Shown piece after piece: positions 18,139 through 41,316 of a stretch of DNA of 64,000 bases; position 1 is the first letter of the stretch, and each line of letters opens with the position of its first letter. Source of the stretch: Flavobacteriales bacterium. GTDB taxonomy: Bacteria > Bacteroidota > Bacteroidia > CAIKAF01. The notes below the pieces were generated by a model. It saw nothing but the letters and a program-made list of their open reading frames with translations. It did no database searches and had not been told where the DNA came from. Made by a program: the position numbers and the translations under genes. The stretch is taken from assembly GCA_040376605.1 (NCBI GenBank), contig JBEIQI010000001.1, positions 5,191-69,190 of the forward strand, in the 5' to 3' direction.

Positions 18139-18144
18139 TGGATA

Positions 18145-19056: not shown

Positions 19057-19066
19057 TTTTCTCTTT

Positions 19067-20068
19067 ATGAAATCACGACGTAGCTTTTTAAAAAAGCTAG
19101 GGCTTTCAGTAGCCGCGATACCATTGGCACCTGCCATGGTAAAAGCTGATGCTTTTGAAGATAATCCGCAAGAAAATATTATAGGAAAAATAAATAAACC
19201 AATTATACTATCTACTTGGCCCTTTGGTCAAATTGCAAATCAGGCTGGTTGGGATATTCTTTCAAAAGGAGGATCCGCATTAGATGCAGTAGAAAGTACC
19301 GCCAAATTCGTAGAGGCCGATCTTACCCAAAAATCCGTTGGATTAGGTGCATTGCCGGATAGAGATGGATATGTTACCCTGGACGCTTGTATAATGGATG
19401 AAAAAGGTAATTGTGGTTCGGTGATGTTTTTAGAAAATATTTTGCATCCGATTTCGGTAGCTCGAATGGTAATGGAAAAAACCCCACATGTGCAAATTGT
19501 TGGATCCGGGGCTCTTCAATTTGCCTTAGAAAATGGATTTACTAAACACGATGCCCCTACCGAAAGTTCTAAAAAGGAATGGCAAGATTGGGTGAAGAAA
19601 AACAATTATACACCTCAACACGGAATAGATAATCATGATACCATTGGCGTAATTGCGATGGATGAAAAGGGGAACTTATCCGGGGCTTGTACTACCAGTG
19701 GAATGGCCTTTAAAATGAGAGGCCGTGTAGGTGATTCCCCAATTATCGGGGCCGGACTTTTTGTAGACAACGAAGTGGGTGCAGCAACCGCTACAGGCAC
19801 TGGTGAAGAAGTGGTTAGAATTTGTGGAACCCATTTAGTAGTAGAATTAATGCGTCAGGGATATTCGCCCTCTGATGCTTGTAAAGAAGCAACGAATAGA
19901 ATTATCAAAAAAAGCCCGAAGTATACCAAGGATATGATTGTAGGTTTTTTAGCAATCAATAAAAAGGGTGAATACGGAGCATATTCTACACGGAAGGGAT
20001 TTTCATATGGTGTTTATGACCAGTCGGGAACAGTCTTAAAGGATGCCCAATTTATTGAACCAGAATAA
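19067..20068 (+). CDS. N4-(beta-N-acetylglucosaminyl)-L-asparaginase / isoaspartyl peptidase (Ntn-hydrolase, asparaginase-2 family) with Tat signal
   Basis: 333 aa. Twin-arginine signal MKSRRSFLKKLGLSVAAIPLAPA. Autoproteolytic site HDTIGVIAMD (Thr nucleophile), ...GAGLFVDNEVGAATATGTGEEV... is typical of glycosylasparaginases. Confidence 0.75.
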   Translation: MKSRRSFLKKLGLSVAAIPLAPAMVKADAFEDNPQENIIGKINKPIILSTWPFGQIANQAGWDILSKGGSALDAVESTAKFVEADLTQKSVGLGALPDRDGYVTLDACIMDEKGNCGSVMFLENILHPISVARMVMEKTPHVQIVGSGALQFALENGFTKHDAPTESSKKEWQDWVKKNNYTPQHGIDNHDTIGVIAMDEKGNLSGACTTSGMAFKMRGRVGDSPIIGAGLFVDNEVGAATATGTGEEVVRICGTHLVVELMRQGYSPSDACKEATNRIIKKSPKYTKDMIVGFLAINKKGEYGAYSTRKGFSYGVYDQSGTVLKDAQFIEPE

Positions 20069-25688: not shown

Positions 25689-26279
25689 ATGAATGTTGCA
25701 AATAACTTTACCACTTTTAAAAACTGGCTTACTCAAGTTTCTTTTTTGAAACCTGAGGATTGTGATATTTTTGAACCTTTCTTAATTACCCAAAAATTTG
25801 AAGAGAAGGAGTTTTTTAATACAGAGGGAAAGGTCTGCAAGGAAATTGGATTTATTAATTCGGGGGCATTTAGAACATTTTATTTGGTTGATGGTAAAGA
25901 AATAAATACTCAGTTTTGTTTCGAAAATCAATTTATAGTGGATTATGATAGTTTCTTAAATAATAAGCCAAGTAGATATTTTATTCAGGCATTGGAGCCA
26001 ACAGAAATTGTAAGTTTTAATTTGGCTGCACTGCAGAGTGCTTATGAACAATCTCAGAACTGGGAAAGATTGGGGAGAGTGATGGCGGAGCAATCTTTTA
26101 CTTACACTACACAGCGTGTAGAAAGTTTTATGTTTCTTGATGGTGAGCAGCGATATCTTCAATTAGTTAAAAATGAACCTGAAATATTTAATAGGGTTCC
26201 ACTTTATCATATAGCATCCTACATTGGTTTGGAAAGGGAAAGCTTGAGTCGATTGAGAAAAAAAATTGCCGGTAAATAA
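25689..26279 (+). CDS. Crp/Fnr family transcriptional regulator (cNMP-binding domain plus C-terminal HTH)
   Basis: 196 aa. The beta-roll region (GFINSGAFRTFYLVDGKEINTQF) and C-terminal HTH (RVPLYHIASYIGLERESLSRLRKK) are typical of short Bacteroidetes Crp-like regulators. Confidence 0.75.
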   Translation: MNVANNFTTFKNWLTQVSFLKPEDCDIFEPFLITQKFEEKEFFNTEGKVCKEIGFINSGAFRTFYLVDGKEINTQFCFENQFIVDYDSFLNNKPSRYFIQALEPTEIVSFNLAALQSAYEQSQNWERLGRVMAEQSFTYTTQRVESFMFLDGEQRYLQLVKNEPEIFNRVPLYHIASYIGLERESLSRLRKKIAGK

Positions 26280-26314: not shown

Positions 26315-26349
26315 CATGTTCATCTTTGTACCATAAAACAATGAACATG
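26315..26349 (+). promoter_or_regulatory. 9-bp perfect inverted repeat CATGTTCAT-N17-ATGAACATG bracketing the start codon of the quinone reductase gene; candidate operator
   Basis: Seen directly in the sequence. It lies immediately downstream of the Crp/Fnr regulator gene and overlaps the translation start of the next gene. Confidence 0.35.
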
Positions 26350-26925
26350 AAAAACATATTGATTATTAACGGTCACCCAAATACCAATAGCTTTAATGCA
26401 TCATTGGTGAATGCCTACAAAACTGGTTCAATTAAAGCAGGGGCTCAAGTAAAGGAAATTGTAATAGCAGATTTAAAATTCAATCCAAATTTGGCGCATG
26501 GTTATCAAAAGAGGACAGAACTCGAACCTGATCTATTAGAAAGTTGGAGCAAAATTCAATGGGCAAATCATTTGGTTTGGGTACATCCTGTTTGGTGGGG
26601 CGGATTGCCAGCAATTACAAAAGGATTTATTGATCGTGTTTTTCTGCCAGGGTTTGCTTTTTCTTATAAGGAAAACTCAGTTTGGTGGGAGAAACATTTA
26701 ACCAATAAAACGGCTCATATTATCACTACATTGGATCAACCCAGCTGGTATTATCGGATGGCTTATGGCAGGCCTAGCGTAAACCAACTTAAAAAATCAA
26801 CTCTAGAATTTTGTGGAGTAAAGCCAGTGAAAGTTACCTATATTGGTCCAATTAGAAATTCTAAGGAGAATTTTAGAATTCAGAAAATAGCTCAAGTAGA
26901 AAAACTCGGCCTATTGCTTAAATAA
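26341..26925 (+). CDS. NAD(P)H dehydrogenase (quinone), flavodoxin-like fold (Flavodoxin_2 / MdaB-KefF type)
   Basis: Track ORF 26326 (TTG). ATG at 26341 gives MNMKNILIINGHPNTNSFNASLVNAY...WANHLVWVHPVWWGGLPAITKGFIDRVF, the classic NQO/MdaB motif. Confidence 0.75.
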   Translation: MNMKNILIINGHPNTNSFNASLVNAYKTGSIKAGAQVKEIVIADLKFNPNLAHGYQKRTELEPDLLESWSKIQWANHLVWVHPVWWGGLPAITKGFIDRVFLPGFAFSYKENSVWWEKHLTNKTAHIITTLDQPSWYYRMAYGRPSVNQLKKSTLEFCGVKPVKVTYIGPIRNSKENFRIQKIAQVEKLGLLLK

Positions 26926-28290
26926 CTATTTTCTAAGTTGGTAAGATTTCGGTTTTGTAAATGCCCTTATGCCTGCATGTGATAAGGTAGACCCAAATCC
27001 TGAATGATTTCTGCCGCTCCATGGAACAGGAGCACTTACCCTGTCACAACAATTCCAATAACCGGTTCCGCTGTCAATTTGTGATAATATTTTTTCAGCT
27101 CGATCCCAGGTTTTTGAATAAACTGCAGCGGTAAGCCCGTATTCTGTATCTTGCATAAGTTTCAAGGCTTCATCGTCATCCTTTACTTTCATAATACCGA
27201 TTACCGGGCCAAAACTTTCTTCTACCATAATGTCCATCTCATGATTTACATCCACCAAAACAGTGGGCTCAAATCCATATCCTTTGCCTTCGATTACTTC
27301 ACCACCAACTAATATATTTGCGCCTTTTTCTATTGCATCTTGCACTTGGTTGTAAATCACTTCTACTTGAGGTTCTCTGGCCACCACGGTAATATATACC
27401 CCATCTTCAGTAGGTAAACCAACCTTCCACGATTTTACTTCTGTTACAAATGCATTGATAAAATCATCGTAGATTTTTTCGTGAACATAAATTCTTTCAA
27501 CAGCACAACAGCTTTGTCCGTTATTATAGAATGCCCCATCTGCTATTCCTGCTGCTGCTGCCGAAATATTTTCTATATCATCTGCTACATAAACAGGATC
27601 TTTGCCGCCTAATTCCAATTGACAAGGCACCATTTTATGAGCTACTTTTTCGTAAATTATTTGTCCTGTTTTGTAAGAGCCCGTAAAGAAATATCCATTA
27701 AATGGCATATCCAATAATATACTTCCCACCTCGCCGGTTCCAATAGCTACTTTAAAAATATCATCTGGCACACCGGCTTTTATGAGTAGCTTTTCAATTT
27801 CTATTCCGGTTAAACTGGAATATTCGGATGGCTTGTACAGCACCGCATTGCCTGCCAATAATGCTGGTACAAATACATTCACTCCTACATTATAAGGGAA
27901 ATTCCATGCCGAAATATTACAAATAACTCCCAATGGTTCGTAAACAATTTTTTCCGTTAAACCGTTGGTTTCCGTCATGATTTCTTCCGACAAATATTTC
28001 TCGGCATTTTCGGTTAACCAAACAACCCGATTACTTGCTCCATTTATTTCGTTTCGGGATTGTTGCAGAGGCTTTCCCACTTCGGAGGTGAGTATCGCGG
28101 CTAAACTTTCAACATTTTCCTTCAACAATGTTGCAAATTTTGATAGAATGGAAATTCGTTCTTTTAATGGAACTGCTTGCCAATTGGGCTGCGACTCTAT
28201 TAATGTATTGTATTTATCTATAATGGTATCTTCATTGTCTTCTGCAATGGTAATGATTATTTCTTCTGTGGCAGGATTAATAATGTCCAT
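26926..28290 (-). CDS. NAD(P)+-dependent aldehyde dehydrogenase (PuuC-like position in operon)
   Basis: 454 aa. ALDH catalytic motifs (ELGGKDP..., NNGQSCCAVERIYV with catalytic Cys, FTGSYKTGQ cofactor site). Confidence 0.85.
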   Translation of the reverse strand: MDIINPATEEIIITIAEDNEDTIIDKYNTLIESQPNWQAVPLKERISILSKFATLLKENVESLAAILTSEVGKPLQQSRNEINGASNRVVWLTENAEKYLSEEIMTETNGLTEKIVYEPLGVICNISAWNFPYNVGVNVFVPALLAGNAVLYKPSEYSSLTGIEIEKLLIKAGVPDDIFKVAIGTGEVGSILLDMPFNGYFFTGSYKTGQIIYEKVAHKMVPCQLELGGKDPVYVADDIENISAAAAGIADGAFYNNGQSCCAVERIYVHEKIYDDFINAFVTEVKSWKVGLPTEDGVYITVVAREPQVEVIYNQVQDAIEKGANILVGGEVIEGKGYGFEPTVLVDVNHEMDIMVEESFGPVIGIMKVKDDDEALKLMQDTEYGLTAAVYSKTWDRAEKILSQIDSGTGYWNCCDRVSAPVPWSGRNHSGFGSTLSHAGIRAFTKPKSYQLRK

Positions 28291-28295
28291 AATAT

Positions 28296-28997
28296 TTACT
28301 TGGGTTTAATTGATGATAAAAATGCTTCTCGTATATTTTGAGAAAATGACAACATCGTTTTGTTAACCTTTAATCTTTCAGGATGCCATTGTACACATAA
28401 TAAAAATGGTTTGCCTTCTTTAATTTTATATTCTGTTGCTTCGGCAACATCATCTTTGGATACGGCTGATACCATTAAATCATCAGCAATAGTGCCCAAC
28501 CCCTGATGATGGGCTGAATTCACTTCGCCGTTTTCTGTTTCAGAAATCTGATATAGGAGGCTTTCACGATCTACAAAAATTTCATGCACCCCATCATCAA
28601 ATTCGTTTGCCTTCCGATGATTTTGACGACCAGCCTCTTCCAAATCCTGAATTAGGTTTCCTCCTAAAGCAATATTCACTAATTGCATGCCTCGGCAAAT
28701 GGCCAAAACCGGAATGTGATGGCTGCATGCATATTCAAAAACTTTAATTTCGAAAATGTCTCTTGCCTCATTAAATATTTCTGGGCCTAATGGATATTCG
28801 TATCTACTGTTATTATAAAATTTAGGATGAGTATCAATACCTCCACTTAAAACGATAGCATCACATTTACTTAAATCCTCTAAATTATTTTCGGTATAGG
28901 ATAAGGTGATAATTTTAATACCATCATCATTTCCCTGAATCCATGGGGCATAGAGATGGAACTTTGAATCGGATTGTGTAATGCCTATTATTTTCAT
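28296..28997 (-). CDS. Gamma-glutamyl-amide hydrolase, class-I glutamine amidotransferase-like (peptidase C26, PuuD type)
   Basis: 233 aa. VLAICRGMQLVNIALGG (nucleophile Cys) ... CVQWHPE (His) is the triad layout of PuuD / gamma-glutamyl-GABA hydrolase. Confidence 0.8.
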   Translation of the reverse strand: MKIIGITQSDSKFHLYAPWIQGNDDGIKIITLSYTENNLEDLSKCDAIVLSGGIDTHPKFYNNSRYEYPLGPEIFNEARDIFEIKVFEYACSHHIPVLAICRGMQLVNIALGGNLIQDLEEAGRQNHRKANEFDDGVHEIFVDRESLLYQISETENGEVNSAHHQGLGTIADDLMVSAVSKDDVAEATEYKIKEGKPFLLCVQWHPERLKVNKTMLSFSQNIREAFLSSIKPK

Positions 28998-29011
28998 GCT
29001 AATTAATTATT

Positions 29012-30160
29012 TTATAAAGCCTCGGCATAAAGGGTTCTGAATTCATCCCTAGAAACAGGTTTTGGATTATTCGGATGTGCAAAATCTGCAAATGCCAAAT
29101 CGGCTAAGGTGTCCAAATGTTCTTCCTTCACTTGGATATCTCTTAAATGATGTGGAATACCAATACTAGAATTTAAATCAAATAGATATTTAACCACTGC
29201 TTCACCGGTAAGTTCTTTAAGATTGAGTGTTTGTGCAATCCTGTGAAAGCGATCTTCGAATCCGGCTATATTAAATTTCATTCCATATGGAATATTAACG
29301 GCATTGGCTAAACCATGATGTGTATCTAATAAGGAGGAAAGTGGATGAGCTAATGAATGAACTACTCCTAAACCTTTTTGAAATGCAATAGCACCCATCA
29401 TAGAGGCCAATAACATTTCAGCCCTGGATTCTACGTCCGGATTTTTAACTGCCTTTTCTAAAGAAACAGAAACTAATCGAATTCCTTCTAATGCAATTCC
29501 ATCGCAAATAGGATGATAATTTTTTGCCAAGAATGCTTCCATGTTATGAGTTAATGCATCCATACCGGTCGCAGCCGTTATAAATGCAGGAAGTTCCATG
29601 GTAAGCATCGGATCTGCAAAAACAATTTTGGCGAGTAGTTTTGGCGAGAATAAAATTTTTTTTTGATGCGTTTCGTCATCTGCAATTATTGCTGATCGGC
29701 CCACTTCAGAGCCTGTTCCAGCTGTTGTGGGTACGGTAATAAAATGAGGTACATCATTGGTAACATAAATATCGCCTCCCACTAAATCATCGTATTTAAA
29801 AAGAGCTTCTCTATGGTTAACTTGCAAAACAATGGCCCTTGCAACATCTAATGCTGCTCCTCCACCAATGCCAATAATACAATCTCTGTGGGTTGCATCC
29901 CAATGTTCGGTTCCTTTATAAACATCTGATTTTACAGGGTTTTTATGGATACTGGAAAAAACCTCTACTGAAATTCCTGCATTTTTTAAATCCGATACAA
30001 TGGTCTTAAAAAAACTCAAATCGGCAATAACCGGATCTGTTACAATCAGTGGTTTATTAAGTTGATTATTTTTTAAATAAGGGGCTAGTTCTTTTATAGC
30101 ACCGGCACCAAATCGTATGATGGTGGGGAAGTTAAATTGAGAAATTTTCGTAAAGTCCAT
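29012..30160 (-). CDS. Iron-containing (group III) alcohol dehydrogenase
   Basis: 382 aa. GGGAALDVARAI (NAD-binding GGGS-like) and metal-ligand His motifs (...THNMEAF..., ...VHSLAHPL...). Confidence 0.85.
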   Translation of the reverse strand: MDFTKISQFNFPTIIRFGAGAIKELAPYLKNNQLNKPLIVTDPVIADLSFFKTIVSDLKNAGISVEVFSSIHKNPVKSDVYKGTEHWDATHRDCIIGIGGGAALDVARAIVLQVNHREALFKYDDLVGGDIYVTNDVPHFITVPTTAGTGSEVGRSAIIADDETHQKKILFSPKLLAKIVFADPMLTMELPAFITAATGMDALTHNMEAFLAKNYHPICDGIALEGIRLVSVSLEKAVKNPDVESRAEMLLASMMGAIAFQKGLGVVHSLAHPLSSLLDTHHGLANAVNIPYGMKFNIAGFEDRFHRIAQTLNLKELTGEAVVKYLFDLNSSIGIPHHLRDIQVKEEHLDTLADLAFADFAHPNNPKPVSRDEFRTLYAEAL

Positions 30161-30272
30161 GGAGTCTTGGTATAGGTTGCAAAATTAGGAAAAAGAGTGG
30201 AATAATCTTGGTGCATTACAACGGTAGATTCCGGCGAAGGCAGCTAGCTCTATTGCGAAATGGCCATATAAA

Positions 30273-31631
30273 CTAAATAATCTCGAAATATCTTCTTTTT
30301 TCCCAATCAGTAACCGCTTTATTATATTGTTTCCATTCCCATTCTCGGGTAGCTACAAAATGATCAACAAATGCATTCCCAAATAATTCTTTTGATAATT
30401 TAGATTGTTTCATGGCTTGGGTAGCATTCCATAAATTGGTGGGCAAAACCCCATGAGAAGTTTCCTTATATCCATTGCCTTTTGTTGGAGCTTGTAGTTT
30501 AAGTTTGTTTTTTATCCCATACAAACCACTTGCTAAACATGCTGCCATGGCTAAATAAGGATTGACATCTGAACCTACTACACGTGTTTCAAGTCGGCAT
30601 GATTTATTACTACTGGGCAATGCTCTTAAAGCAACGGTTCTATTATCAATGGCCCAGGTTAAAGTTGTTGGAGCCCAAGCTCCTTCAACCAATCTTTTAT
30701 ATGAATTAATGGTAGGGGCGTACATTGGCAAAATAAATGGAAGACAATATAATTGACCAGCAATATATTGTTTCATTAATTCACTCATGCCATCTTTTTC
30801 ATCCTCGCTATGGAATAAATTTTTATTAGGTCTTTTATCCCACAAACTTTGATGAACATGTCCACTGCATCCTGGTAAATTCTCATCCCATTTAGCCATA
30901 AAGCTAGCCATGATTCCATGCATATAGGCCAATTCTTTTACGGATGATTTAAATAGTACGGCTCGATCTGCTGCCTCCAATATACCTGAATAGGTAATGG
31001 CTGCTTCATAAACACCTGGCCCTGTTTCGGTATGTAAACCTTCAATAGGAATATCGAATTTTTTTAATTCATCGAATATGGCAGAAAAAAAATCATTTCT
31101 TAAAGTAGTTCTTAAAATAGAATAACCAAACATGCCCGGCGTAAGTGGGCTAAGGTTATTAAATTTTTTTTCGTGAATAGATTGAGGTGTTTCTTCGAAA
31201 TTAAACCATTCGAATTCCTGACTGAAATAGGGCACATAGCCAGCTTTATCTGCTGAGGCAATTATTTTTTTTAATAGATTTCTCGGACAAACATCTGCCG
31301 GGTTTTCTTTTTCATGAACGAGTTCGCAAAGGAAAAAAGGAATATTATTTTCCCATGGAATCATTCGAAAGGTAGATAAATCAATTCTTGCCGGTGCATC
31401 TGGGTAACCTGATTGCCATCCGGTATATGAAGAATTATCATAAGCGGTATCATTGGCATCCCAGCCAAATACAACATTACAAAAACCTAGTTGACCCTTA
31501 ACTGCACTTAGAAACTTTTCGGTGCTGATATATTTTCCACGTAAAACTCCATCAATATCAGTAATGGCTAATTTTACCTTTTGGTCGGAATGGTTTTTTA
31601 CATAATCGATAATTTCCTGTTCTGTCATCAT
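30273..31631 (-). CDS. Glutamine synthetase-family gamma-glutamyl-amine ligase (PuuA / GlnA4 / GmaS type)
   Basis: 452 aa. GS catalytic-domain features (...FEPKP-like beta-grasp N-terminal domain, HVHQSLW, NPYLAMAACLASG, ...R...E motifs). Size and operon context fit the PuuA-like ligases rather than housekeeping GlnA. Confidence 0.75.
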   Translation of the reverse strand: MMTEQEIIDYVKNHSDQKVKLAITDIDGVLRGKYISTEKFLSAVKGQLGFCNVVFGWDANDTAYDNSSYTGWQSGYPDAPARIDLSTFRMIPWENNIPFFLCELVHEKENPADVCPRNLLKKIIASADKAGYVPYFSQEFEWFNFEETPQSIHEKKFNNLSPLTPGMFGYSILRTTLRNDFFSAIFDELKKFDIPIEGLHTETGPGVYEAAITYSGILEAADRAVLFKSSVKELAYMHGIMASFMAKWDENLPGCSGHVHQSLWDKRPNKNLFHSEDEKDGMSELMKQYIAGQLYCLPFILPMYAPTINSYKRLVEGAWAPTTLTWAIDNRTVALRALPSSNKSCRLETRVVGSDVNPYLAMAACLASGLYGIKNKLKLQAPTKGNGYKETSHGVLPTNLWNATQAMKQSKLSKELFGNAFVDHFVATREWEWKQYNKAVTDWEKRRYFEII

Positions 31632-31634
31632 AAA

Positions 31635-32951
31635 TTATTTTTTATAAAATATCTTGTAAACAATAAAACAAATAAGAAGGATACCTAAGTAAATCAACAT
31701 CAGCTTTATCCAATAAATGCCAATTAATACAAAGGTAACCATTGCCAACACCATAGCTAATGCAGGAACAAATGGATAACCAGGAACTCTATAGGGGCGA
31801 TGAGTATTCGGATCTTTGCGCCTTAGTGCAATAAGCGAAAGCATGGCCAGCATATACAACGTTAATGCTCCTAAAACCGAAATGATAATTATGTCCCCAG
31901 TTTTATTCGTTATTAATAGCATTATACCAATACACATATTGGCAATTAGCGCATAATCGGGAGTTTTAACAATAGGTTGAATATGCCCTAGAAATTTAGG
32001 TGCTAAACCGGCTTTACCAAATTCGAAAGTAGACCGACCTGCAGCTAAAATTAATCCATGGAACGAAGCCACTAAACCAAATAAACCGATCGTAATTAAT
32101 AGATGATATAATAATGCATTATCACCTACTACCTTTCTCATCGCTAATGGTAGGGGAGAATCAGATACATTTCCATTCTGCGCATTATCGAAAACAATGA
32201 GTTCCCAGCCGCCAACCCCAACGGCTGCTACAAAGGTTAATATGCACAATACTACTAATGTAAAAATGGCCGATCCAAAACCTTTTAAAATATCTTTTTG
32301 TGGATTTTTTGTTTCTTCAGCAACATTTGCCAAACCTTCGATTCCCAGAAAAAACCATACAGCAAAAGGAAGTGCCCCAAGAATTCCTTTCCAACCATTT
32401 GGTAAGGCGTTATGTTGCAGGTTTTCCATTTTAAAATGTGGCATGGTAACTCCGGCAAAAATTAAAAGTTCTACTACAGCAATGATTGTGATTACTAATT
32501 CGAAGATAGCCGCCGCTTTTACCCCTGATACATTTAATAAAGTAAAAATAATATAAGCTGAAATAGATATTGCTAAGGCAGGAATTTGTGGAAAGAATAA
32601 ATGAAAATAAGTTCCTATGGCAAATGCAATAGCGGGTGGTGCGAATACAAATTCAATGATTTGGGCCATCCCTGCCAAAAAGCCGATATCTTTTCCAAAA
32701 GCTTTAGTGGCATAATCAAATACACCACCCGCCTTTGGTATATAGCAAGCAAGCTCCGCATAGGAAAATGTAAAACAAGCATAAAGTATTATAATGATAA
32801 CGGTGGCAATTCCCATTCCTAAAGTTCCACCTTCTTTTAAACCCAAATTCCAGCCAAAATATAATCCAGAAATAACATAACCTACCCCTAATCCCCAAAG
32901 CATTATAGGAGTAAGTGTTTTCTTAAGGCTGCCGTTATTGGTTATTTCCAT
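31635..32951 (-). CDS. APC-superfamily amino acid/amine permease (ethanolamine/putrescine permease-like)
   Basis: 438 aa, 12 TM. An APC signature is recognisable near the N-terminus. First gene of the minus-strand operon. Confidence 0.75.
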   Translation of the reverse strand: MEITNNGSLKKTLTPIMLWGLGVGYVISGLYFGWNLGLKEGGTLGMGIATVIIIILYACFTFSYAELACYIPKAGGVFDYATKAFGKDIGFLAGMAQIIEFVFAPPAIAFAIGTYFHLFFPQIPALAISISAYIIFTLLNVSGVKAAAIFELVITIIAVVELLIFAGVTMPHFKMENLQHNALPNGWKGILGALPFAVWFFLGIEGLANVAEETKNPQKDILKGFGSAIFTLVVLCILTFVAAVGVGGWELIVFDNAQNGNVSDSPLPLAMRKVVGDNALLYHLLITIGLFGLVASFHGLILAAGRSTFEFGKAGLAPKFLGHIQPIVKTPDYALIANMCIGIMLLITNKTGDIIIISVLGALTLYMLAMLSLIALRRKDPNTHRPYRVPGYPFVPALAMVLAMVTFVLIGIYWIKLMLIYLGILLICFIVYKIFYKK

Positions 32952-33060
32952 CCCTCAATAATAATAAAAATTGACTGTAATTGGTCCTAATTGCTCGCCT
33001 CAAGGTCATACTTCTTGGGATATTTTTAATCTGGCATTGAACAAAATGAATCGGGCATTT

Positions 33061-33090
33061 TTGGAAATTTGTTTTTATTATCTACATTTG
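33061..33090 (+). promoter_or_regulatory. Bacteroidetes promoter (-33 TTG, 19-nt spacer, -7 TAcaTTTG) driving the SAM riboswitch / met operon
   Basis: ttggaaatttgtttttattatctacatttg, with TTG at 33061-33063 and TAnnTTTG at 33083-33090. Confidence 0.5.
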
Positions 33091-33115
33091 TGACATCAAA
33101 CGACCTGTTACAAGG

Positions 33116-33258
33116 TAATTGATTTATAAAGAAGAGGTTAGAGACTGGCTCGTTGAACCTCTGGCAACCAACTATAAGCCCCGTTAATTCGGGTTGGAAA
33201 ACCGGTGCCAATTCCAGATTCTGCTACATATTGTATCAGAAGAATATAGATTGAGAAA
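33116..33258 (+). promoter_or_regulatory. SAM-I (S-box) riboswitch aptamer
   Basis: Contains the invariant SAM-I blocks ...AGAAGAGGTTAGAGACTGGCTCGTTGAACCTCTGGCAACC... (GGCAACC at 33163-33169) and GGTGCCAATTCC (33204-33215). P2 (GAGGTT/AACCTC), P3 and P4 hairpins can be drawn. It sits 5' of metY-metX-hom. Confidence 0.8.
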
Positions 33259-33507: not shown

Positions 33508-34902
<1,395 letters not shown>

Positions 34903-34950
34903 TGGTTGATAATAATAAAACTCTATAATAAATAATTAGCAAATGTAGGC

Positions 34951-35970
34951 ATGTCAAACTTTCAAACATACCAAAACACCCAACCCTTTGCACTCGAAAG
35001 TGGCGAGGTACTTGGTGGGCTTAAAATAGCTTACCATACCTATGGTACCTTTGATGCACAAAAAAGCAAGGTGGTTTGGGTTTGCCATGCCCTCACAGCT
35101 AATTCCGATGTAGCAGATTGGTGGGAAGATATTTTTGGCAAAGGCAGTCACTTCGATAAAGAGGAATATTATATCATTTGCGCAAATATATTAGGATCAT
35201 GTTATGGATCTACAGGGCCATTGTCTGATAATGGCATTGGACGTCCTTATTTAAGAAGTTTTCCACTGGTAACCCCAAGGGACATGGCAAATGCTCATTT
35301 AATGCTGAAATCGCACCTGAAGATTCAAACCATTGATTTGTTAATTGGTTCATCTCTGGGAGGGCAGCAAGCTATGGAGCTTGCAATACAACTTAAGGAG
35401 GATTTGGATCAACTCATATTAATTGCTACTAATGCAAAACATTCACCCTATGGTATTGCCTTTAATGAATCCCAGCGTTTGGCATTATTAGCAGATGAAA
35501 GCTTTGAAAGACAGGAACCTAATGGTGGAGAAAAGGGCTTAATTGCTGCTAGAAGCATTGCGATGTTAAGTTATCGCTCCTATCACGGTTATCAAATTAC
35601 CCAATCAGAAGAAAGTAGCAATAAGCTGGATGATTTTAAGTCGTCTTCATATCAGAGGTATCAGGGTAAAAAATTGGCTAAAAGGTTTAATGCTTATTCA
35701 TATTGGGCACTTTTAAAATCTATGGATAGCCACCATGTAGGTCGGAACAAGGGATCAATAAAGGATGCTCTTGCAGAAATAACTGCTAGAACATTAGTGG
35801 TAGGGATCAGTAGCGATTTGCTTTTTCCAGTAGAGGAGCAAAAATATTTAGCCGAACATATTCTAAACGCCCAGCTGGAAGTAATGGATTCGAATTTTGG
35901 ACATGATGGGTTTTTAGCGGACGCCAAAGTACTTGAAACAATTATTATTGAATTTTTAAAAACTACATAA
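34951..35970 (+). CDS. metX: Homoserine O-acetyltransferase
   Basis: 339 aa alpha/beta hydrolase. FALESGEVLGGLKIAYHTYG...VVWVCHALTANSD...GSSLGGQQA (nucleophile Ser) ... DLLFP ... HDGFL is the MetX pattern. Confidence 0.85.
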   Translation: MSNFQTYQNTQPFALESGEVLGGLKIAYHTYGTFDAQKSKVVWVCHALTANSDVADWWEDIFGKGSHFDKEEYYIICANILGSCYGSTGPLSDNGIGRPYLRSFPLVTPRDMANAHLMLKSHLKIQTIDLLIGSSLGGQQAMELAIQLKEDLDQLILIATNAKHSPYGIAFNESQRLALLADESFERQEPNGGEKGLIAARSIAMLSYRSYHGYQITQSEESSNKLDDFKSSSYQRYQGKKLAKRFNAYSYWALLKSMDSHHVGRNKGSIKDALAEITARTLVVGISSDLLFPVEEQKYLAEHILNAQLEVMDSNFGHDGFLADAKVLETIIIEFLKTT

Positions 35971-35971
35971 A

Positions 35972-37219
35972 ATGAGAAAGAAATTATCGATTGGATTATT
36001 TGGATTTGGTTGTGTTGGAAATGGGTTATATGAAGTGTTGAATAAATCAGAGTTATTAGATGCAACGATCAAAAAAATAGTGGTTAAGAATCCTACCAAA
36101 GATAGAAAAATTAGTAAGGAGCATTTTTCATATGATAAAAATGATATTTTATTGGATGATGAAATTAACCTTGTTGTTGAATTGATTGATGATGCAAAAG
36201 CTGCATTTTTAATCGTTTCCGAGGCATTAAAAAGAAAGAAAAATGTAGTTACCGCCAATAAAAAAATGCTTGCTGAGAACCTTGAGGAACTTATTGGGCT
36301 GGCAAAGGAAAATAAGGTATCCTTATTATATGAAGCATCTGTGGGAGGCAGTATTCCTATAATCAGGAACTTGGAGGAATACTATAATAATGATTCTCTA
36401 TCAGGGGTGTTGGGAATTGTAAATGGAACCACGAATTATATTCTAACCCAAACCAATTATGGCAAGGACTATGATTCGGCATTGCAGGAAGCCCGTGAGT
36501 TAGGATTTGCGGAATCTGATCCTACCTTAGATGTTGACGGATTTGATTCGAAGTTTAAATTGATATTGCTCATTAAGCATGCTTTTGGATTAACCTTACA
36601 AGCCGAAGAGGTGTTTAATTATGGAATACGTCAAGTAAAAGAGCAGGATGTTAGGTATGCTTCGGAAAAGGGACTTCGCTTAAAATTATTTTCAAGGGCC
36701 GAAAAAGTGGGGAATCAATTAATAGGTTTTGTGGCGCCACACTTTATTGCGGAGGATAATGTCGCTTATAATGTAAATAACGAATTTAATGCAGTAACTG
36801 TAGAAGCATTATTTTCCGATAAACAATTGTTTTTGGGTAAAGGTGCAGGAGCCTATCCAACGGCAAGTGCTGTATTATCTGATATTTCAGCACTCCAATA
36901 TGATTATGCCTATGAGTATAAAAAATCACAGAAAGTGAATAATTTAACCTATACCACTGATTTTAAATTGAAAATCTATGCCGGATCATCTTCTATTGAA
37001 AAGTTAGAGGAGCTTCCTTGGATAGAAAAAGATGAAGTACTAAAAAGTAAAGACTACTGTTATATCACGGGAATTATAAACTTTGCCGACCTGTTTCTAA
37101 CGGATTTTAATGCCAGAAATGATTTTTTCTTCGCGGTTCTCCCTCATTCCATCAAGGACTTAAACAGTTCTGAAGCTCAATTATCATTTGCCGAATTACA
37201 AGAATCTATTAACTATTAA
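35972..37219 (+). CDS. hom: Homoserine dehydrogenase
   Basis: 415 aa. N-terminal GLFGFGCVGNG (NAD-binding), catalytic ...ANKKMLAENLEEL..., ...GTTNYIL..., ...GFAESDPTLDVDGFDSKFKL... are Hom hallmarks. Confidence 0.8.
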   Translation: MRKKLSIGLFGFGCVGNGLYEVLNKSELLDATIKKIVVKNPTKDRKISKEHFSYDKNDILLDDEINLVVELIDDAKAAFLIVSEALKRKKNVVTANKKMLAENLEELIGLAKENKVSLLYEASVGGSIPIIRNLEEYYNNDSLSGVLGIVNGTTNYILTQTNYGKDYDSALQEARELGFAESDPTLDVDGFDSKFKLILLIKHAFGLTLQAEEVFNYGIRQVKEQDVRYASEKGLRLKLFSRAEKVGNQLIGFVAPHFIAEDNVAYNVNNEFNAVTVEALFSDKQLFLGKGAGAYPTASAVLSDISALQYDYAYEYKKSQKVNNLTYTTDFKLKIYAGSSSIEKLEELPWIEKDEVLKSKDYCYITGIINFADLFLTDFNARNDFFFAVLPHSIKDLNSSEAQLSFAELQESINY

Positions 37220-37242
37220 ATAACCCTCAAATTAATTTAAAA

Positions 37243-37734
37243 ATGAATCAAGCTCCTTTACCCTGGTATATTGCCGGCCCGCTTATTGGTCTAATCGTTC
37301 CCTTACTCTTATTGTTAAGAGAAAAACAATTTGGTATTTCGTCATCGTATCGTTATATCTGGTCGTTAATTACAAAGAAACCAGCCTATTTTAATTATGA
37401 TAACAAGGTGGATGCCTGGCAAGCTCAATTTGGAATTGGTTTAATTGCCGTGGGATTCTATTATTATTTTACTAAGGAAGCTAATTTTCTCATGAACGAT
37501 GAATTATCCAACCAGTTTAATGTTGATTTTTATCAAATCAGTAATTGGGTCGTGTTTTTGATTGGGGGCATTTTGGTTGGTTTTGGGGCTAGATATGCTA
37601 ATGGCTGCACTGCAGGGCATTGTATCATGGGAATGTCTCAGCTTTCTCTCACCTCATTAATAGCTACTGTTGGGTTTTTTATCGGGGGCTTAATCATTGC
37701 TCATTTTATTAATCCAATTCTTTATCATTTATAA
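37243..37734 (+). CDS. YeeE/YedE family (sulfur/thiosulfate transporter) half-protein, N-terminal-type
   Basis: 163 aa, 4 TM, conserved Cys-containing loop GARYANGCTAGHCIMG. Confidence 0.65.
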   Translation: MNQAPLPWYIAGPLIGLIVPLLLLLREKQFGISSSYRYIWSLITKKPAYFNYDNKVDAWQAQFGIGLIAVGFYYYFTKEANFLMNDELSNQFNVDFYQISNWVVFLIGGILVGFGARYANGCTAGHCIMGMSQLSLTSLIATVGFFIGGLIIAHFINPILYHL

Positions 37735-37737
37735 ATT

Positions 37738-38163
37738 ATGAAAAAAATAATCAATTTTATTGTTTCCATTTTATTGGGAGCTGCTTTCGGAATAGTGCTT
37801 ATAGAGTCACAGGCAATTTCTTGGTATAGAATTCAGGAAATGTTTTATTTTCAGTCGTTCCATATGTATGGTTTGTTAGGTTCTGCTATTGCTACCGGTG
37901 CCTTAAGTATTTTTCTTATAAAGAAGCTAAAGGTTAAAAGTGTCTATAATAATACGGTTGTTGTTAAAGATAAACCACTAACTTGGAAGGCGAATTTGAT
38001 AGGAGGAATTATTTTCGGTTTGGGCTGGGGATTAACAGGGGCTTGTTCTGCACCGCTGCTAATTTTGGTTGGGTTATCATGGAAGTTGGGTTTAATTTTG
38101 TTGGGTGGAGCATTATTGGGTACTTTTATTTATGGAATATTAAAAAACAAACTTCCGCATTAA
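37738..38163 (+). CDS. YeeE/YedE family half-protein, C-terminal-type
   Basis: 141 aa, 4 TM, conserved GLGWGLTGACSAP loop. Abuts the upstream half-gene. Confidence 0.65.
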   Translation: MKKIINFIVSILLGAAFGIVLIESQAISWYRIQEMFYFQSFHMYGLLGSAIATGALSIFLIKKLKVKSVYNNTVVVKDKPLTWKANLIGGIIFGLGWGLTGACSAPLLILVGLSWKLGLILLGGALLGTFIYGILKNKLPH

Positions 38164-38164
38164 T

Positions 38165-38584
38165 ATGAAATTAATTTTAGAAAGGATAAATAGTAAAGTG
38201 GCTTTTAAATCCACCAACGAATTCGGTACAGCGGTTCAAATTGATGGAAGTGAATCGGCAGGGGGTGAGGGCCTGGGCCTGCGCCCAATGGAATTGTTAG
38301 CTACGTCTTTGGCTTCTTGTCTTAGCATTGATATTTTACTAATTCTAAAAAAAATGCGAATTGAGCCCATTAAATATGAAGTTCATATTCAATCAAAACG
38401 CAAAGATGCTGTTCCATCATCATTCGAATCAATTCATTTAACTTTTGTGGTTGATAAAAATGATCCTAGAGAGAAAATTGAAAAAGCGATTCAATTAAGT
38501 TTGGATAAATATTGTTCGGTTGCCGCAAGCCTCTCCAATGAAATAAAAATTAGCTTTGATGTAATCACACCAAAAAAATTATAA
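38165..38584 (+). CDS. OsmC/Ohr family thiol protein
   Basis: 139 aa. Two conserved Cys in OsmC-like positions (LATSLASCLSIDI and DKYCSVAASL). Confidence 0.65.
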   Translation: MKLILERINSKVAFKSTNEFGTAVQIDGSESAGGEGLGLRPMELLATSLASCLSIDILLILKKMRIEPIKYEVHIQSKRKDAVPSSFESIHLTFVVDKNDPREKIEKAIQLSLDKYCSVAASLSNEIKISFDVITPKKL

Positions 38585-38589
38585 AGTAA

Positions 38590-39771
38590 ATGAGCAAAAA
38601 ATATTTAAAGAATGCCCATAAGGAAACTTTGGCCATTCGAACACATATTCTAAGAACTAATCAAAAGGAACATTCCAATCCATTGTTCCTTACCAGTAGT
38701 TTTACATTTGACACGGCCGAAGAAATGGCAGCTGTATTTGCTGATGAGATCCCAGGAAATATTTATTCACGATATTCAAACCCCAATGTTCAAGAGCTTA
38801 TAGATAAGGTGTGTTTATTAGAAAACGCAGAAAGCGGATGGGCTACTTCCTCCGGTATGGCTGCTGTATTTACTACATTTGGTGCATTATTAAAATCAGG
38901 GGATCATATCGTTTCGAGCCGATCTGTTTTTGGATCAACACATCGATTATTCACAGAAGTATTTCCTAAATGGGAGGTTTCTACGACATATGTGGATGCA
39001 TTAGATTATGAAGGATATAAAAATGCTATTCAACCAAATACCAAAATTTTATATTTAGAAACCCCTTCAAACCCGGCGTTAGAAATTATTGATATTAAAA
39101 CGGTGGCTAAAATTTGTAAGAAGGCAAAAATACTTTTCGTAGTGGATAATTGTTTTGCAACACCTATATTACAGCGACCGCTTGATTTAGGAGCAGATAT
39201 CTCCATTCATTCAACTACAAAATTTATGGATGGCCAAGGAAGAACGCTTGGTGGATTGATTTTATCAAACTCAAAAATTATCAAAGAAATTGAAGGATTT
39301 GCTCGCCATACCGGGCCGGCATTAAGCCCGTTTAATGCCTGGATCATTTCTAAGTCAATCGAAACTTTACATATACGTGTTGAAAGAATGACCGAAAATG
39401 CGTTGGTGATTGCAAAAAAATTAGAAAAGTATCCCAAAGTAAAATGGGTTAAATATCCATTTTTGCCAAGCCATCCTCATTACAAAACTGCGAAAAAGCA
39501 GATGTTTGGAGGAGGCTCTATTGTTACATTTGAAATAAAAGGTGGATTAAAAGCAGGCCGTCAATTTTTAAATAAACTTCAGCTATTTTCATTAACTCCC
39601 AATTTAGGGGATGCCAAAAGTATTGCTACCCATCCGGCATCTACGACCCATTCGAAATTAAAGCCGGAGGAGAGAAATGCCGTGGGTATTTCCGATGGTT
39701 TGGTTAGATTATCCATCGGTCTTGAACATTCTAATGATATTTGGAAAGATATTTTACAGGCCCTATCCTAA
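38590..39771 (+). CDS. PLP-dependent O-succinyl/acyl-homoserine sulfhydrylase or cystathionine gamma-synthase (MetZ/MetB-like)
   Basis: 393 aa. Cys/Met-metabolism PLP family (...YSRYSNPN..., ...HSTTKFMDGQG... PLP-Lys, ...RLSIGLEH...). Confidence 0.8.
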   Translation: MSKKYLKNAHKETLAIRTHILRTNQKEHSNPLFLTSSFTFDTAEEMAAVFADEIPGNIYSRYSNPNVQELIDKVCLLENAESGWATSSGMAAVFTTFGALLKSGDHIVSSRSVFGSTHRLFTEVFPKWEVSTTYVDALDYEGYKNAIQPNTKILYLETPSNPALEIIDIKTVAKICKKAKILFVVDNCFATPILQRPLDLGADISIHSTTKFMDGQGRTLGGLILSNSKIIKEIEGFARHTGPALSPFNAWIISKSIETLHIRVERMTENALVIAKKLEKYPKVKWVKYPFLPSHPHYKTAKKQMFGGGSIVTFEIKGGLKAGRQFLNKLQLFSLTPNLGDAKSIATHPASTTHSKLKPEERNAVGISDGLVRLSIGLEHSNDIWKDILQALS

Positions 39772-39807: not shown

Positions 39808-41064
39808 TTATGTTTTTTGTTCTTTCTTTTTAGCTGCAGGAAAAAGAACATTATTTAATATCAAACGATATCCTGATGAATTGGGATGCAGCGATAAATC
39901 TGTAGGTTCATCACCCACCCGATGCTGATAATCTTCCGGATCGTGTCCACCATAAAAAGTCCAGAAGCCTTTTCCAAAAGTTCCATGCATGTATCGAACT
40001 TCGTTAGCTTGTTTATTTTCTCCCAATATAACAACGTTAGATTTCAATAATTTTTTATTAAACGCAGTGGTTTGTCCAAGAAATCCTTTAATAACCGATT
40101 CATGATTTTGGGTTAACATGGTGGGCACTTCATCAGCTTTAGCAGAAAATTCAAACAATGTAAAAAAGTCGAATTTTTGCTGCATATTTCGGGTGGTGGT
40201 CATATCAATATTAGAATATTCGTATTCCGATGGATTCGTGCTAATGGTAAAATCTTTGAAAGCGAAACATTTGGTAAAATCTAGTTTAGCTTGTGATTGT
40301 TGATCCATCGGATCTCCGTCAAACGGGGTTTCACAAATATCGATACCTTCTGCGGCCAATGAAATATCATAACTGTCGGTTGCGCTACACATGGCAAATA
40401 AGTATCCACCTCCGGCTACATAATCACGTATTTTTTTTGCAACTCCTAATTTTAATTCGCTTACTTTATTAAATCCTAATTTTTTTGCCAGAATTTCTGA
40501 TGACCTCACTTGTTCTTGGTACCAACTGTCATTTTTATAGGCCGACCAAAACTTTCCATACTGACCTGTAAAGTCTTCATGATGCAAGTGTAACCAATTA
40601 TAGGTTGGCAACAGACCTCCAATAACTTCGGTATCGTAAATGGTGTCGTAAGGTATTTCTGAGTAGGTTAGTACCATGGTTACCGCATCATCCCAAGGTT
40701 GCATACCTGGAGGAGAATAAACGGCAATTTTGGGAGCCTTTTCCAACTTCATTGGATTTTGATTGACATCGGGGTCGGATAATTGTGAAATTAAATTGGT
40801 GCTTTGGCCGTCCGTTATTAACTCGTAAGAAACATTTCTGGCAAGCATTAAATCTTCATAAGTTGATCTGTATTTAAACATGAATGCGCCTCCACGATAA
40901 TTAAGCATCCAAAAAATCTCATCGTTTAATTCTAACACTCGATATGCAACTCCATATGCTTTCAAATGATCCGTTTGGCCATCATCCATTGGAATAAAAA
41001 CATAATTTGCCCTGGTACTTGTTATACTTAAAAATATAATCAGGGTAAAAGTTAATTTTTTCAT
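39808..41064 (-). CDS. Hypothetical secreted protein
   Basis: Track ORF starts at 41145. The likely start is MKKLTFTLIIFLSITSTRANYVF (signal peptide). No family recognised. Confidence 0.45.
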   Translation of the reverse strand: MKKLTFTLIIFLSITSTRANYVFIPMDDGQTDHLKAYGVAYRVLELNDEIFWMLNYRGGAFMFKYRSTYEDLMLARNVSYELITDGQSTNLISQLSDPDVNQNPMKLEKAPKIAVYSPPGMQPWDDAVTMVLTYSEIPYDTIYDTEVIGGLLPTYNWLHLHHEDFTGQYGKFWSAYKNDSWYQEQVRSSEILAKKLGFNKVSELKLGVAKKIRDYVAGGGYLFAMCSATDSYDISLAAEGIDICETPFDGDPMDQQSQAKLDFTKCFAFKDFTISTNPSEYEYSNIDMTTTRNMQQKFDFFTLFEFSAKADEVPTMLTQNHESVIKGFLGQTTAFNKKLLKSNVVILGENKQANEVRYMHGTFGKGFWTFYGGHDPEDYQHRVGDEPTDLSLHPNSSGYRLILNNVLFPAAKKKEQKT

Positions 41065-41316
41065 ACTTCGAATATACGGATAATGTATTGATTGGAGTAA
41101 ACGTGATTTACTCGGTTTTGTTATATGTTTAAATATAACTCTCAATATTTGTGCCTAATAGCTCTATTGACTGAAAGAAACAATGGGTTGTGCCTAAGCA
41201 GACCATATAGCTTTCTTTAAGGATTTTTGCAGAAATCTTTGTTTATCTAGTAAAAATAAATGCAGATAGGTTAAAATATAGAAGCAGAATAAGAGAAATA
41301 CAAATAACTAAAATGG

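Follow-up and report, generated by a model that had tools for sequence, protein, structure and literature searches.

Ethanolamine released from phosphatidylethanolamine is a ubiquitous source of both carbon and nitrogen, and the textbook EutBC route for its breakdown requires adenosylcobalamin and often a microcompartment, whereas a γ-glutamylation route avoids both. The γ-glutamylation pathway for ethanolamine of Chromohalobacter salexigens and of Agrobacterium tumefaciens is reportedly due to Vetting et al. in 2015 (cited in PMC10132767 and PMC6529630). Here we describe a cluster of five genes in a 64,000-nt stretch of contig JBEIQI010000001.1 from a Flavobacteriales bacterium (referred to as the window throughout; coordinates are positions in it unless another locus is named). 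We consider it probable that this operon catabolises a primary ω-amino alcohol, most probably ethanolamine, via γ-glutamylated intermediates.

Described systems of this kind come from several groups of bacteria. In Phaeobacter sp. MED193 an operon (MED193_10026-10056) that is induced on phosphatidylethanolamine, with proteomic support, includes an RpiR regulator, a γ-Glu-Gly amidohydrolase, the TRAP transporter EtoXVW, an ethanolamine γ-glutamylase and aldehyde and alcohol dehydrogenases (PMC10132767). For C. salexigens and A. tumefaciens closely related genes are stated to have been demonstrated to work as a pathway for ethanolamine (PMC10132767), while elsewhere the C. salexigens pathway is instead described as an in-silico prediction (PMC6529630). 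For Streptomyces coelicolor the γ-glutamylethanolamide synthetase activity of GlnA4 (SCO1613) has been proven, with the later steps predicted to be encoded within SCO1610-1615 and with a hydrolase, SCO1615, that belongs to the formylglutamate-amidohydrolase family (PMC6529630). A preliminary description of the window had spoken of an ethanolamine logic 'proposed' in actinomycetes by way of GlnA4; the first step is proven for GlnA4, and prior knowledge was understated as C. salexigens, A. tumefaciens and Phaeobacter were left out. Its further remark that no characterised equivalent is known from Bacteroidetes agrees with our literature search, in which no publication on a Bacteroidota version was found.

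All five open reading frames (ORFs) of the operon are on the minus strand, start with ATG and are full length in the ORF listing of the window, and each has a full-length Pfam match. In order of transcription they encode an Eat-family APC permease of 438 amino acids, a predicted importer of ethanolamine or another amino alcohol (31635-32951; AA_permease_2, 1.5e-38); a 452-residue protein resembling glutamine synthetase (GS), predicted to be a glutamate-ethanolamine ligase (30273-31631; Gln-synt_C, 7.2e-97); an iron-containing (group III) alcohol dehydrogenase (Fe-ADH, or ADH) of 382 residues, the predicted γ-glutamyl-ethanolamide dehydrogenase (29012-30160; Fe-ADH, 3.3e-44, and ADH_Fe_C, 1.4e-47); a Peptidase_C26, or class-I glutamine-amidotransferase-type, γ-glutamyl amidohydrolase of 233 residues, predicted to cleave γ-Glu-Gly (28296-28997; 1.4e-44); and an NAD(P)-dependent aldehyde dehydrogenase (ALDH) of 454 residues, predicted to act on γ-glutamyl-aminoacetaldehyde (26926-28290; Aldedh, 7.9e-126). 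The gaps between them, counted from the permease, are 3, 112, 14 and 5 nt, an exact match to the layout given in the preliminary description. A terminator scan of the minus strand inside the operon gave no terminator-like site; scans for sigma-70 promoters and terminators were at chance level. It is plausible that the five genes are carried on a single transcript. The GC content of the operon (0.36-0.37) is the same as that of its flanks and the wider setting is chromosomal, with DnaB and a met operon in the window.

We have compared the GS-like protein with family models, with solved structures and with E. coli GlnA. Its top NCBIfam match is the type I GS model (GlnA, TIGR00653), yet at 240.6 bits it lies below the cutoff of 429.15, and the type III GS model TIGR03105 (219.7 against 469.6) and the γ-glutamylputrescine synthetase model NF045547 (197.8 against 650) are likewise not reached. 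When aligned with E. coli GlnA the ligands of the metal, ATP and glutamate are conserved (E129, E131, E212, E220, H269, H271, R321, R339, R344, E357 and R359), while the residues of the ammonium site are lost, with the flap residue E327 replaced by W, N264 replaced by P and the Y179 column gapped by deletion of the region. Because the catalytic ligands are kept and the ammonium-site residues are gone, the sequence supports a GS-family γ-glutamyl-amine ligase and not a housekeeping GS. Flap changes of this type (F in GlnA4, W in PauA7) have been argued to admit amines larger than ammonium (PMC6529630). The best matches among solved structures are 11zs (287 bits) and 5dm3 (274 bits), as compared with at most 181 bits for true GS, 149 for glutamate-methylamine ligase and 55 for PA5508. 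The entry 11zs, a protein of 461 residues in 12 chains labeled 'Glutamine synthetase, catalytic domain' in the PDB, shares 54-55% identity with 5dm3 and with the ligase encoded in a Ruegeria cluster, and is likely to be a GlnA4-type enzyme. We take 5DM3 to be Csal_0679, the ethanolamine γ-glutamylase of C. salexigens, in support of which it is 75% identical to the same Ruegeria ligase, whose cluster encodes an N-formylglutamate-amidohydrolase-family protein (FGase), the GS-like enzyme, an ALDH and an Fe-ADH.

The relationships of the ligase were examined by pairwise identities and by a neighbour-joining tree with 300 bootstraps. Identities are highest to GS-like proteins of Legionella lytica, Burkholderia vietnamiensis G4 and Pseudorhizobium (46-47%), followed by IpuC (40%; reference from the Paenarthrobacter aurescens pTC1 annotation), 5dm3, 11zs and Ruegeria (35-36%), E. 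coli GlnA (31%) and E. coli PuuA (29%). In the tree the Bacteroidota ligases are monophyletic (100%) and are joined with the proteobacterial clade of Legionella/Burkholderia/Pseudorhizobium type (100%); 5dm3, Ruegeria and 11zs group at 99%, no support (0%) is given to joining the Bacteroidota clade and the 5dm3/GlnA4-type clade, and E. coli GlnA is the outgroup to the whole clade of γ-glutamyl-amine ligases. By its sequence, then, the window ligase is not orthologous to the ethanolamine ligases that have been characterised, those of the Csal_0679/GlnA4 clade. The preliminary description had proposed a ligase of the γ-glutamylation type, and model cutoffs, residues and tree all place the protein apart from housekeeping GlnA. 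Source annotations of its relatives read merely 'glutamine synthetase (family protein)'.

With 418.5 bits over residues 8-430 the permease exceeds the cutoff (381.75) of the ethanolamine permease equivalog model TIGR00908, the next model being at 149 bits, and five orthologues from distant Bacteroidota reach 408-440 bits on the same model. The permease is 43% identical, over 99% of its length, to an Eat protein of Moraxella whose gene is part of an eat-eutB-eutC operon, and its best plasmid-borne homologues, at 40-43% identity over their full length, are all annotated 'eat'. As core Eat proteins score 581-622 bits, it is a peripheral but passing member of the Eat family (TIGR00908, TC 2.A.3.5).

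Of the three remaining enzymes the ADH and ALDH are full length and show their catalytic motifs in translation. The ADH reaches no NCBIfam equivalog cutoff (the best is 4-hydroxybutyrate dehydrogenase, 331 against 500 bits) and shares 38-39% identity with its Fe-ADH counterparts in the γ-glutamyl clusters of Ruegeria and Legionella. The hydrolase is PuuD-like, as had been proposed: the PuuD structure 6vtv is among its matches, its identity to E. coli PuuD is 32% and its Cys-His-Glu triad (C101, H205, E207) is invariant in 45 aligned sequences. Its score on the PuuD equivalog model is 69.6 bits against a cutoff of 266; fold and chemistry are those of PuuD, but it is not a PuuD equivalog. The ALDH, with catalytic motifs ELGGK and GQSCC visible in its translation, shares 34-36% identity with its counterparts in the Ruegeria, Legionella and Burkholderia clusters and 31% with PuuC, and is below all equivalog cutoffs, including that of PuuC (238 against 850). 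As these model matches of the ADH, hydrolase and ALDH, to PuuD, PuuC and others, are so far below cutoff they tell little about substrate.

A scan of genomes, one per species, found at least 587 ligase relatives, of which the best 80 loci were examined by two independent approaches, tblastn with the window proteins and all-against-all clustering of ORFs. These 80 loci are all from Bacteroidota (Flavobacteriales, Saprospiraceae, Chitinophagales, Cytophagales and Sphingobacteriales), as are all those relatives at 73-90% ligase identity that carry a source name. Many are metagenome-assembled genomes whose names point to lake, groundwater and glacier-fed stream sources, and cultured strains are also represented (Pedobacter soli, P. 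frigoris, Solitalea koreensis, Chitinophaga terrae, Hanamia caeni and Ilyomonas limi). The two approaches agree that the only conserved families are those of the five operon genes, present in 79, 66, 49, 46 and 41 loci. The permease is upstream of the ligase in 63 of 73 loci. Of the 60 loci whose sequence continues for 4.3 kb or more downstream of the ligase, 35 have the ADH, hydrolase and ALDH in the same order on the same strand. Since the same five families are conserved and collinear across Bacteroidota orders, the gene order of the window does not reflect chance. Median identity to the window proteins is highest for the ADH (79%), followed by the ligase (71%), the ALDH (68%), the permease (63%) and the hydrolase (43%). 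The ADH, which the preliminary description had placed in the position of the E. coli oxidase PuuB, does occupy this position; it is the best-conserved gene of the operon and is always found between ligase and hydrolase.

Comparison with the C. salexigens and MED193 type of pathway reveals the same four steps (GS-like γ-glutamylase, ADH, ALDH and γ-Glu-Gly amidohydrolase) clustered with a transporter; an example with an Fe-ADH from the Roseobacter group is Ruegeria conchae (L085), with the order FGase-GS-ALDH-FeADH. The parts are different, however. The window ligase is ~35% identical and in a separate clade, the ADH and ALDH are 35-38% identical, and the Peptidase_C26 hydrolase of the window is a functional analogue, not a homologue, of the N-formylglutamate-amidohydrolase-family enzyme found there. 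Transport there is by TRAP (EtoXVW) or EamA proteins and in the window by an Eat APC permease, and the RpiR/DeoR regulator has no counterpart at the window operon. The Streptomyces GlnA4 cluster also combines a GS-like ligase, with an aromatic residue in place of the E327 flap residue, with a predicted dehydrogenase, ALDH and hydrolase, and in other Streptomyces an ethanolamine/amino-acid permease adjoins glnA4 much as the permease adjoins the ligase here. The flap residue is F in the GlnA4 clade and W in the window ligase, the presumed GlnA4-type structures 11zs and 5dm3 are 35-36% identical to the latter, and the EpuRI repressor that is adjacent in Streptomyces is absent from the window operon. 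The replacement of the hydrolase by a C26 enzyme is not unique to Bacteroidota, since actinobacterial plasmids carry uncharacterised GS-PuuD-ALDH-SDR clusters.

With the E. coli Puu system (puuP-puuA / puuD-puuR-puuC-puuB-puuE) the operon shares a permease, a GS-like ligase, an ALDH and a C26 hydrolase with conserved triad. Here the FAD oxidase PuuB is absent from the operon, and it is not conserved in the 80 loci either; the Fe-ADH occupies its slot, and neither PuuR nor PuuE is found at the window operon. Identities are low (PuuA 29%, PuuC 31%, PuuD 32%, PuuP 22%) and all Puu equivalog models remain below cutoff. The isopropylamine (Ipu) pathway, which occurs in Pseudomonas sp. KIE171 as well, provides another parallel, with a GS-like γ-glutamylisopropylamide synthetase IpuC (40% identical, W at the flap), a class-I amidotransferase-type hydrolase, ALDH/ADH and a γ-glutamyl amino alcohol intermediate. 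There a P450 system creates the hydroxyl group and hydrolysis precedes alcohol oxidation; at Ipu-type loci (L087, L096) cytochrome P450, ferredoxin and reductase genes are beside the ligase, and none of these is in the window operon.

Ligases closest to those of Bacteroidota are found in clusters of varied content. On the Legionella lytica plasmid pLlyPCM2298_1 (L084, 7977-12624) the order is GS-ALDH-FeADH-amidotransferase, the same four enzyme types as in the window, and on pBVIE01 of Burkholderia vietnamiensis G4 a GS-ALDH-amidotransferase set is accompanied by RpiR. These are the closest ligases outside Bacteroidota (46-47%, sister at 100%), but gene order is different, the amidotransferase is of a subfamily unlike PuuD, an Eat permease is missing, and their ADH and ALDH are of the type found in Roseobacter ethanolamine clusters (51-55% identical to Ruegeria as compared with 34-39% to the window). 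In Rhizobium leguminosarum (L094, 2561-9741) a PuuD-like hydrolase, a GMC oxidoreductase, a GS and an ALDH are found, and in Rhodobacteraceae M382 (L093, 4783-9799) a class-III aminotransferase-FGase-GS-ALDH set occurs with a polyamine (spermidine/putrescine) ABC transporter. These varied contexts argue that the ligase clade is substrate-plastic and support the notion that the enzyme in the PuuB slot tracks the class of substrate, an aminotransferase with diamines and an ADH or GMC oxidoreductase with amino alcohols. The clusters at L093, L094 and L084 would then form a natural 'module swap' series for γ-glutamylation pathways, none of which appears to have been characterised. That an ADH in this slot implies an amino-alcohol substrate, as the preliminary description had argued, is thus supported by the sister-clade contexts, and the permease passes the ethanolamine-permease model.

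Taken in this way the operon would function as follows. Ethanolamine would be imported by the Eat-type permease, and its amino group joined to the γ-carboxyl of glutamate by the GS-like ligase with ATP, producing γ-glutamyl-ethanolamide; the Fe-ADH would oxidise the free hydroxyl to give γ-glutamyl-aminoacetaldehyde, the ALDH would convert the aldehyde to γ-glutamyl-glycine, and the C26 hydrolase would release glycine and regenerate glutamate. Such a route would proceed without cobalamin, without a microcompartment and without acetaldehyde as a product. As glutamylation masks the amine, the reactive amino-aldehyde would never be free and could not condense with itself. We infer the reaction order, the substrate of each enzyme and the physiological role of ethanolamine from the considerations above: the ADH and ALDH are placed on glutamylated species because ligase and hydrolase alone would form a futile cycle, substrates of the 1-amino-2-propanol type are ruled out because the ALDH needs a primary alcohol, and a catabolic pathway for ethanolamine is proposed because the same enzyme logic (GS-like enzyme, Fe-ADH, ALDH and amidohydrolase) has been reported in C. 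salexigens, A. tumefaciens and Phaeobacter. The choice of ethanolamine itself is suggested by the permease model and by this analogy, and other ω-amino alcohols are possible.

Several observations weigh against the proposed ethanolamine pathway. The ligase belongs to a clade apart from the characterised one, and its relatives appear to handle diamines too. Identities of ligase, ADH and ALDH to their counterparts in ethanolamine-type clusters are only 34-39%, and 25 of the 60 long loci are without adjacent ADH, hydrolase and ALDH. A few ligase orthologues occur in quite different contexts, and clustering of the ORFs in the 80 loci shows no regulator or ethanolamine-linked accessory gene conserved nearby. 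The permease passes TIGR00908 modestly, with 418 bits where core members score 580-620, and one Eat homologue adjoins the gene for a primary-amine oxidase, so that the family may carry other small amines and not be strictly specific for ethanolamine. The same logic might therefore serve a different primary amino alcohol, such as 3-aminopropanol (yielding β-alanine), 4-aminobutanol (yielding γ-aminobutyric acid, GABA), L-alaninol (yielding alanine) or serinol, with ethanolamine a side substrate at most. The divergence of the ligase clade and the varied contexts of its relatives are in keeping with this, as are the unproven exclusivity of the Eat family for ethanolamine, the 40% identity of the ligase to IpuC, in whose pathway γ-Glu-alaninol occurs, the resemblance of the hydrolase to PuuD, which cleaves γ-Glu-GABA, and the C4 chemistry of the nearest sub-threshold models for ADH and ALDH, the 4-hydroxybutyrate and succinate-semialdehyde dehydrogenases. 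We nevertheless consider this unlikely, as the matches of the ADH, ALDH and hydrolase are so far below cutoff that they say little about substrate, permeases throughout the clade pass the ethanolamine-permease equivalog model, and ethanolamine, as the head group of phosphatidylethanolamine, is by far the commonest natural amino alcohol.

A pathway for diamines or polyamines of the Puu or Pau kind, with the oxidase or aminotransferase encoded elsewhere and the Fe-ADH serving some other purpose such as aldehyde detoxification, is improbable in our view. A PuuD-like hydrolase and an ALDH are indeed common to Puu, and the closest ligases outside Bacteroidota (46-47%) include ones whose neighbours are a class-III aminotransferase together with a spermidine/putrescine ABC transporter. 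However, an oxidase or aminotransferase is conserved in 0 of the 80 loci, the Fe-ADH is the most conserved component and invariably sits between ligase and hydrolase, the permease is of Eat type and only 22% identical to PuuP, and the γ-glutamylputrescine synthetase model gives 198 where 650 is required. A biosynthetic or protective role, in which a γ-glutamyl osmolyte or signal is made or a toxic aldehyde is scavenged and no nutrient is catabolised, would be in keeping with the indirect nature of the support for catabolism and with there being no known regulator, but a permease of importer type leads the operon and the hydrolase encoded with it breaks the γ-glutamyl bond, as in the catabolic Puu and ethanolamine clusters, and we give this role very little weight. 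Weight that is smaller still, close to negligible, attaches to a housekeeping GS that happens to have unrelated neighbours and no dedicated pathway. The annotation as 'glutamine synthetase' and TIGR00653 as the top NCBIfam match would suggest as much; set against these are a GlnA score of 240.6 where 429 is needed, the change of E327 to W and of N264 to P along with the missing Y179 region, the 31% identity to E. coli GlnA, the outgroup of the tree, and the collinearity of five genes across orders.

Two kinds of loci that depart from the five-gene arrangement were noted. In Emticicia sp. BO119 (L068, 5730-10472) a ligase orthologue (~69% identical) is found with an ATP-grasp protein, a GntP-family permease and a molybdopterin oxidoreductase, while Eat, ADH, hydrolase and ALDH are all absent; L057 shares this context, as does L079 by tblastn pattern only, and a second function of the ligase clade within Bacteroidota may be represented. 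In a number of Chitinophagales (L019, L025, L031, L032, L051 and similar loci) only the Eat permease and ligase adjoin, and upstream there are an ALDH that has diverged from that of the window (27-30% identity), a 158-residue protein without Pfam match and a PNPOx-like protein. The ADH and hydrolase of these genomes are presumably located elsewhere or have been replaced.

Inositol-monophosphatase-family genes directly adjoin γ-glutamyl clusters of the ethanolamine type in members of two phyla, Ruegeria conchae (L085, 6326-7114) and Arthrobacter sp. U41 (L097, 6012-6812 and 1542-2462), the latter also having a choline/ethanolamine-kinase-family gene. The inositol-monophosphatase-family neighbour could be a phosphoethanolamine phosphatase that feeds the pathway.

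The promoter of the operon is presumably contained in the 169-nt non-coding region (32952-33120, minus strand) that separates the permease start codon from an S-adenosylmethionine (SAM) riboswitch and is shared with the divergent met operon, which leaves ~170 nt for this purpose; a strict TAnnTTTG box is not found on the minus strand of this region. The riboswitch (SAM-I, RF00162) is located at 33121-33252 on the plus strand, with 57 bits (gathering score 44.4), and is preceded by ~30 nt by a Bacteroidetes -7-type box, TACATTTG, at 33083-33090 (plus strand). Both serve the divergent metY-metX-hom operon. Since the SAM riboswitch is the only one that Rfam finds in the 607-nt region upstream of the permease, and is on the plus strand, a riboswitch for the catabolic operon was rejected. 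The met/sulfur operon itself (33559-39771, plus strand) encodes an O-acetylhomoserine sulfhydrylase, MetX and homoserine dehydrogenase, together with two half-size Sulf_transp proteins, an OsmC protein and a second Cys_Met_Meta_PP enzyme. Its homoserine and methionine genes raise the question of whether homoserine might be the substrate of the five-gene operon, but they adjoin the operon in the window and its closest relative only, and this candidate was dismissed.

Also upstream is a 10-nt direct repeat, ATGCCNGATT, present twice with a period of 21 nt at 33038-33068 on the minus strand, at -107/-86 from the permease ATG at 32951. As the repeat is not conserved in relatives it was discarded as a conserved operator. 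The 21-nt spacing of the copies is typical of sites for LytTR-type regulators; the closest relative (L089) keeps only CCCGATTCATTT of the repeat, and its histidine kinase/LytTR pair is just downstream of the operon. Within the operon the 112-nt spacer between ligase and ADH (30161-30272, minus strand) contains a Bacteroidetes -7-like box, TAATTTTG, at 30180-30187 on the minus strand, ~20 nt upstream of the ADH start codon, a possible internal promoter from which the ADH, hydrolase and ALDH might be additionally transcribed. Across the window, motifs of the TAATTTTG type show no enrichment above chance, the spacer has no significant RNA structure (z = 0.82), and in relatives the corresponding gap ranges from 5 to 1263 nt.

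Beyond the 3' end of the operon are two convergent plus-strand genes, one for a Crp-like protein with a cNMP-binding domain (25689-26279) and one for a Flavodoxin_2 NAD(P)H oxidoreductase, or quinone reductase (26326-26925), whose stop codon and that of the ALDH directly adjoin at 26925/26926, just as the preliminary description had it. These genes are bystanders and were rejected as members of the system: they occur in 0 of the 80 loci, and in L089, where the ligase is 90% identical, genes for a histidine kinase, a LytTR regulator and a β-lactamase are inserted between them and the operon. Elsewhere in the window genes for an MFS transporter, a ROK-family kinase or regulator and an Asparaginase_2 (glycosylasparaginase-type) protein are in a row on the plus strand (16735-20068) and may constitute a small unit for utilisation of N-glycan or aspartylglucosamine. 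A 500-residue protein with B12-binding and radical-SAM domains is encoded at 46920-48422 (minus strand), and two neighbouring ORFs (44929-46143 and 39808-41145) lack a Pfam match.

As the pathway logic is already known in other phyla, a function of this kind is to be expected by analogy, and what is new are the Bacteroidota enzyme lineages, the hydrolase family and the transporter; the usefulness of the finding is in pointing to an unannotated, widespread and B12-independent route and to an apparently convergent assembly of a pathway. More tentatively, and with somewhat less than even confidence, we suggest that Bacteroidota have independently built a cobalamin-independent and microcompartment-free route from ethanolamine to glycine out of non-orthologous parts, namely a ligase from another GS-like clade, a hydrolase of PuuD type and not of FGase type, and Eat in place of TRAP, with the ligase representing a second, convergent origin of glutamate-ethanolamine ligation, and that this route could be a major and so far unannotated sink for the head group of phosphatidylethanolamine in lake, groundwater and glacier-fed stream habitats. 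No NCBIfam equivalog at present captures any of the four enzymes, and, if the proposal is correct, genes that are now labeled just 'glutamine synthetase family protein' or 'iron-containing ADH' would receive a specific function; the ligase has at least 587 relatives among species-representative genomes. The pathway logic would then have arisen more than once, from different enzyme lineages, and as a general rule the enzyme that replaces PuuB, be it an oxidase, an aminotransferase, an ADH, a GMC oxidoreductase or a P450, would reveal to which chemical class the substrate belongs. The genes described here would also provide markers for ethanolamine turnover by Bacteroidota in environmental datasets, surveys of which at present rely on the proteobacterial TRAP binding protein only.

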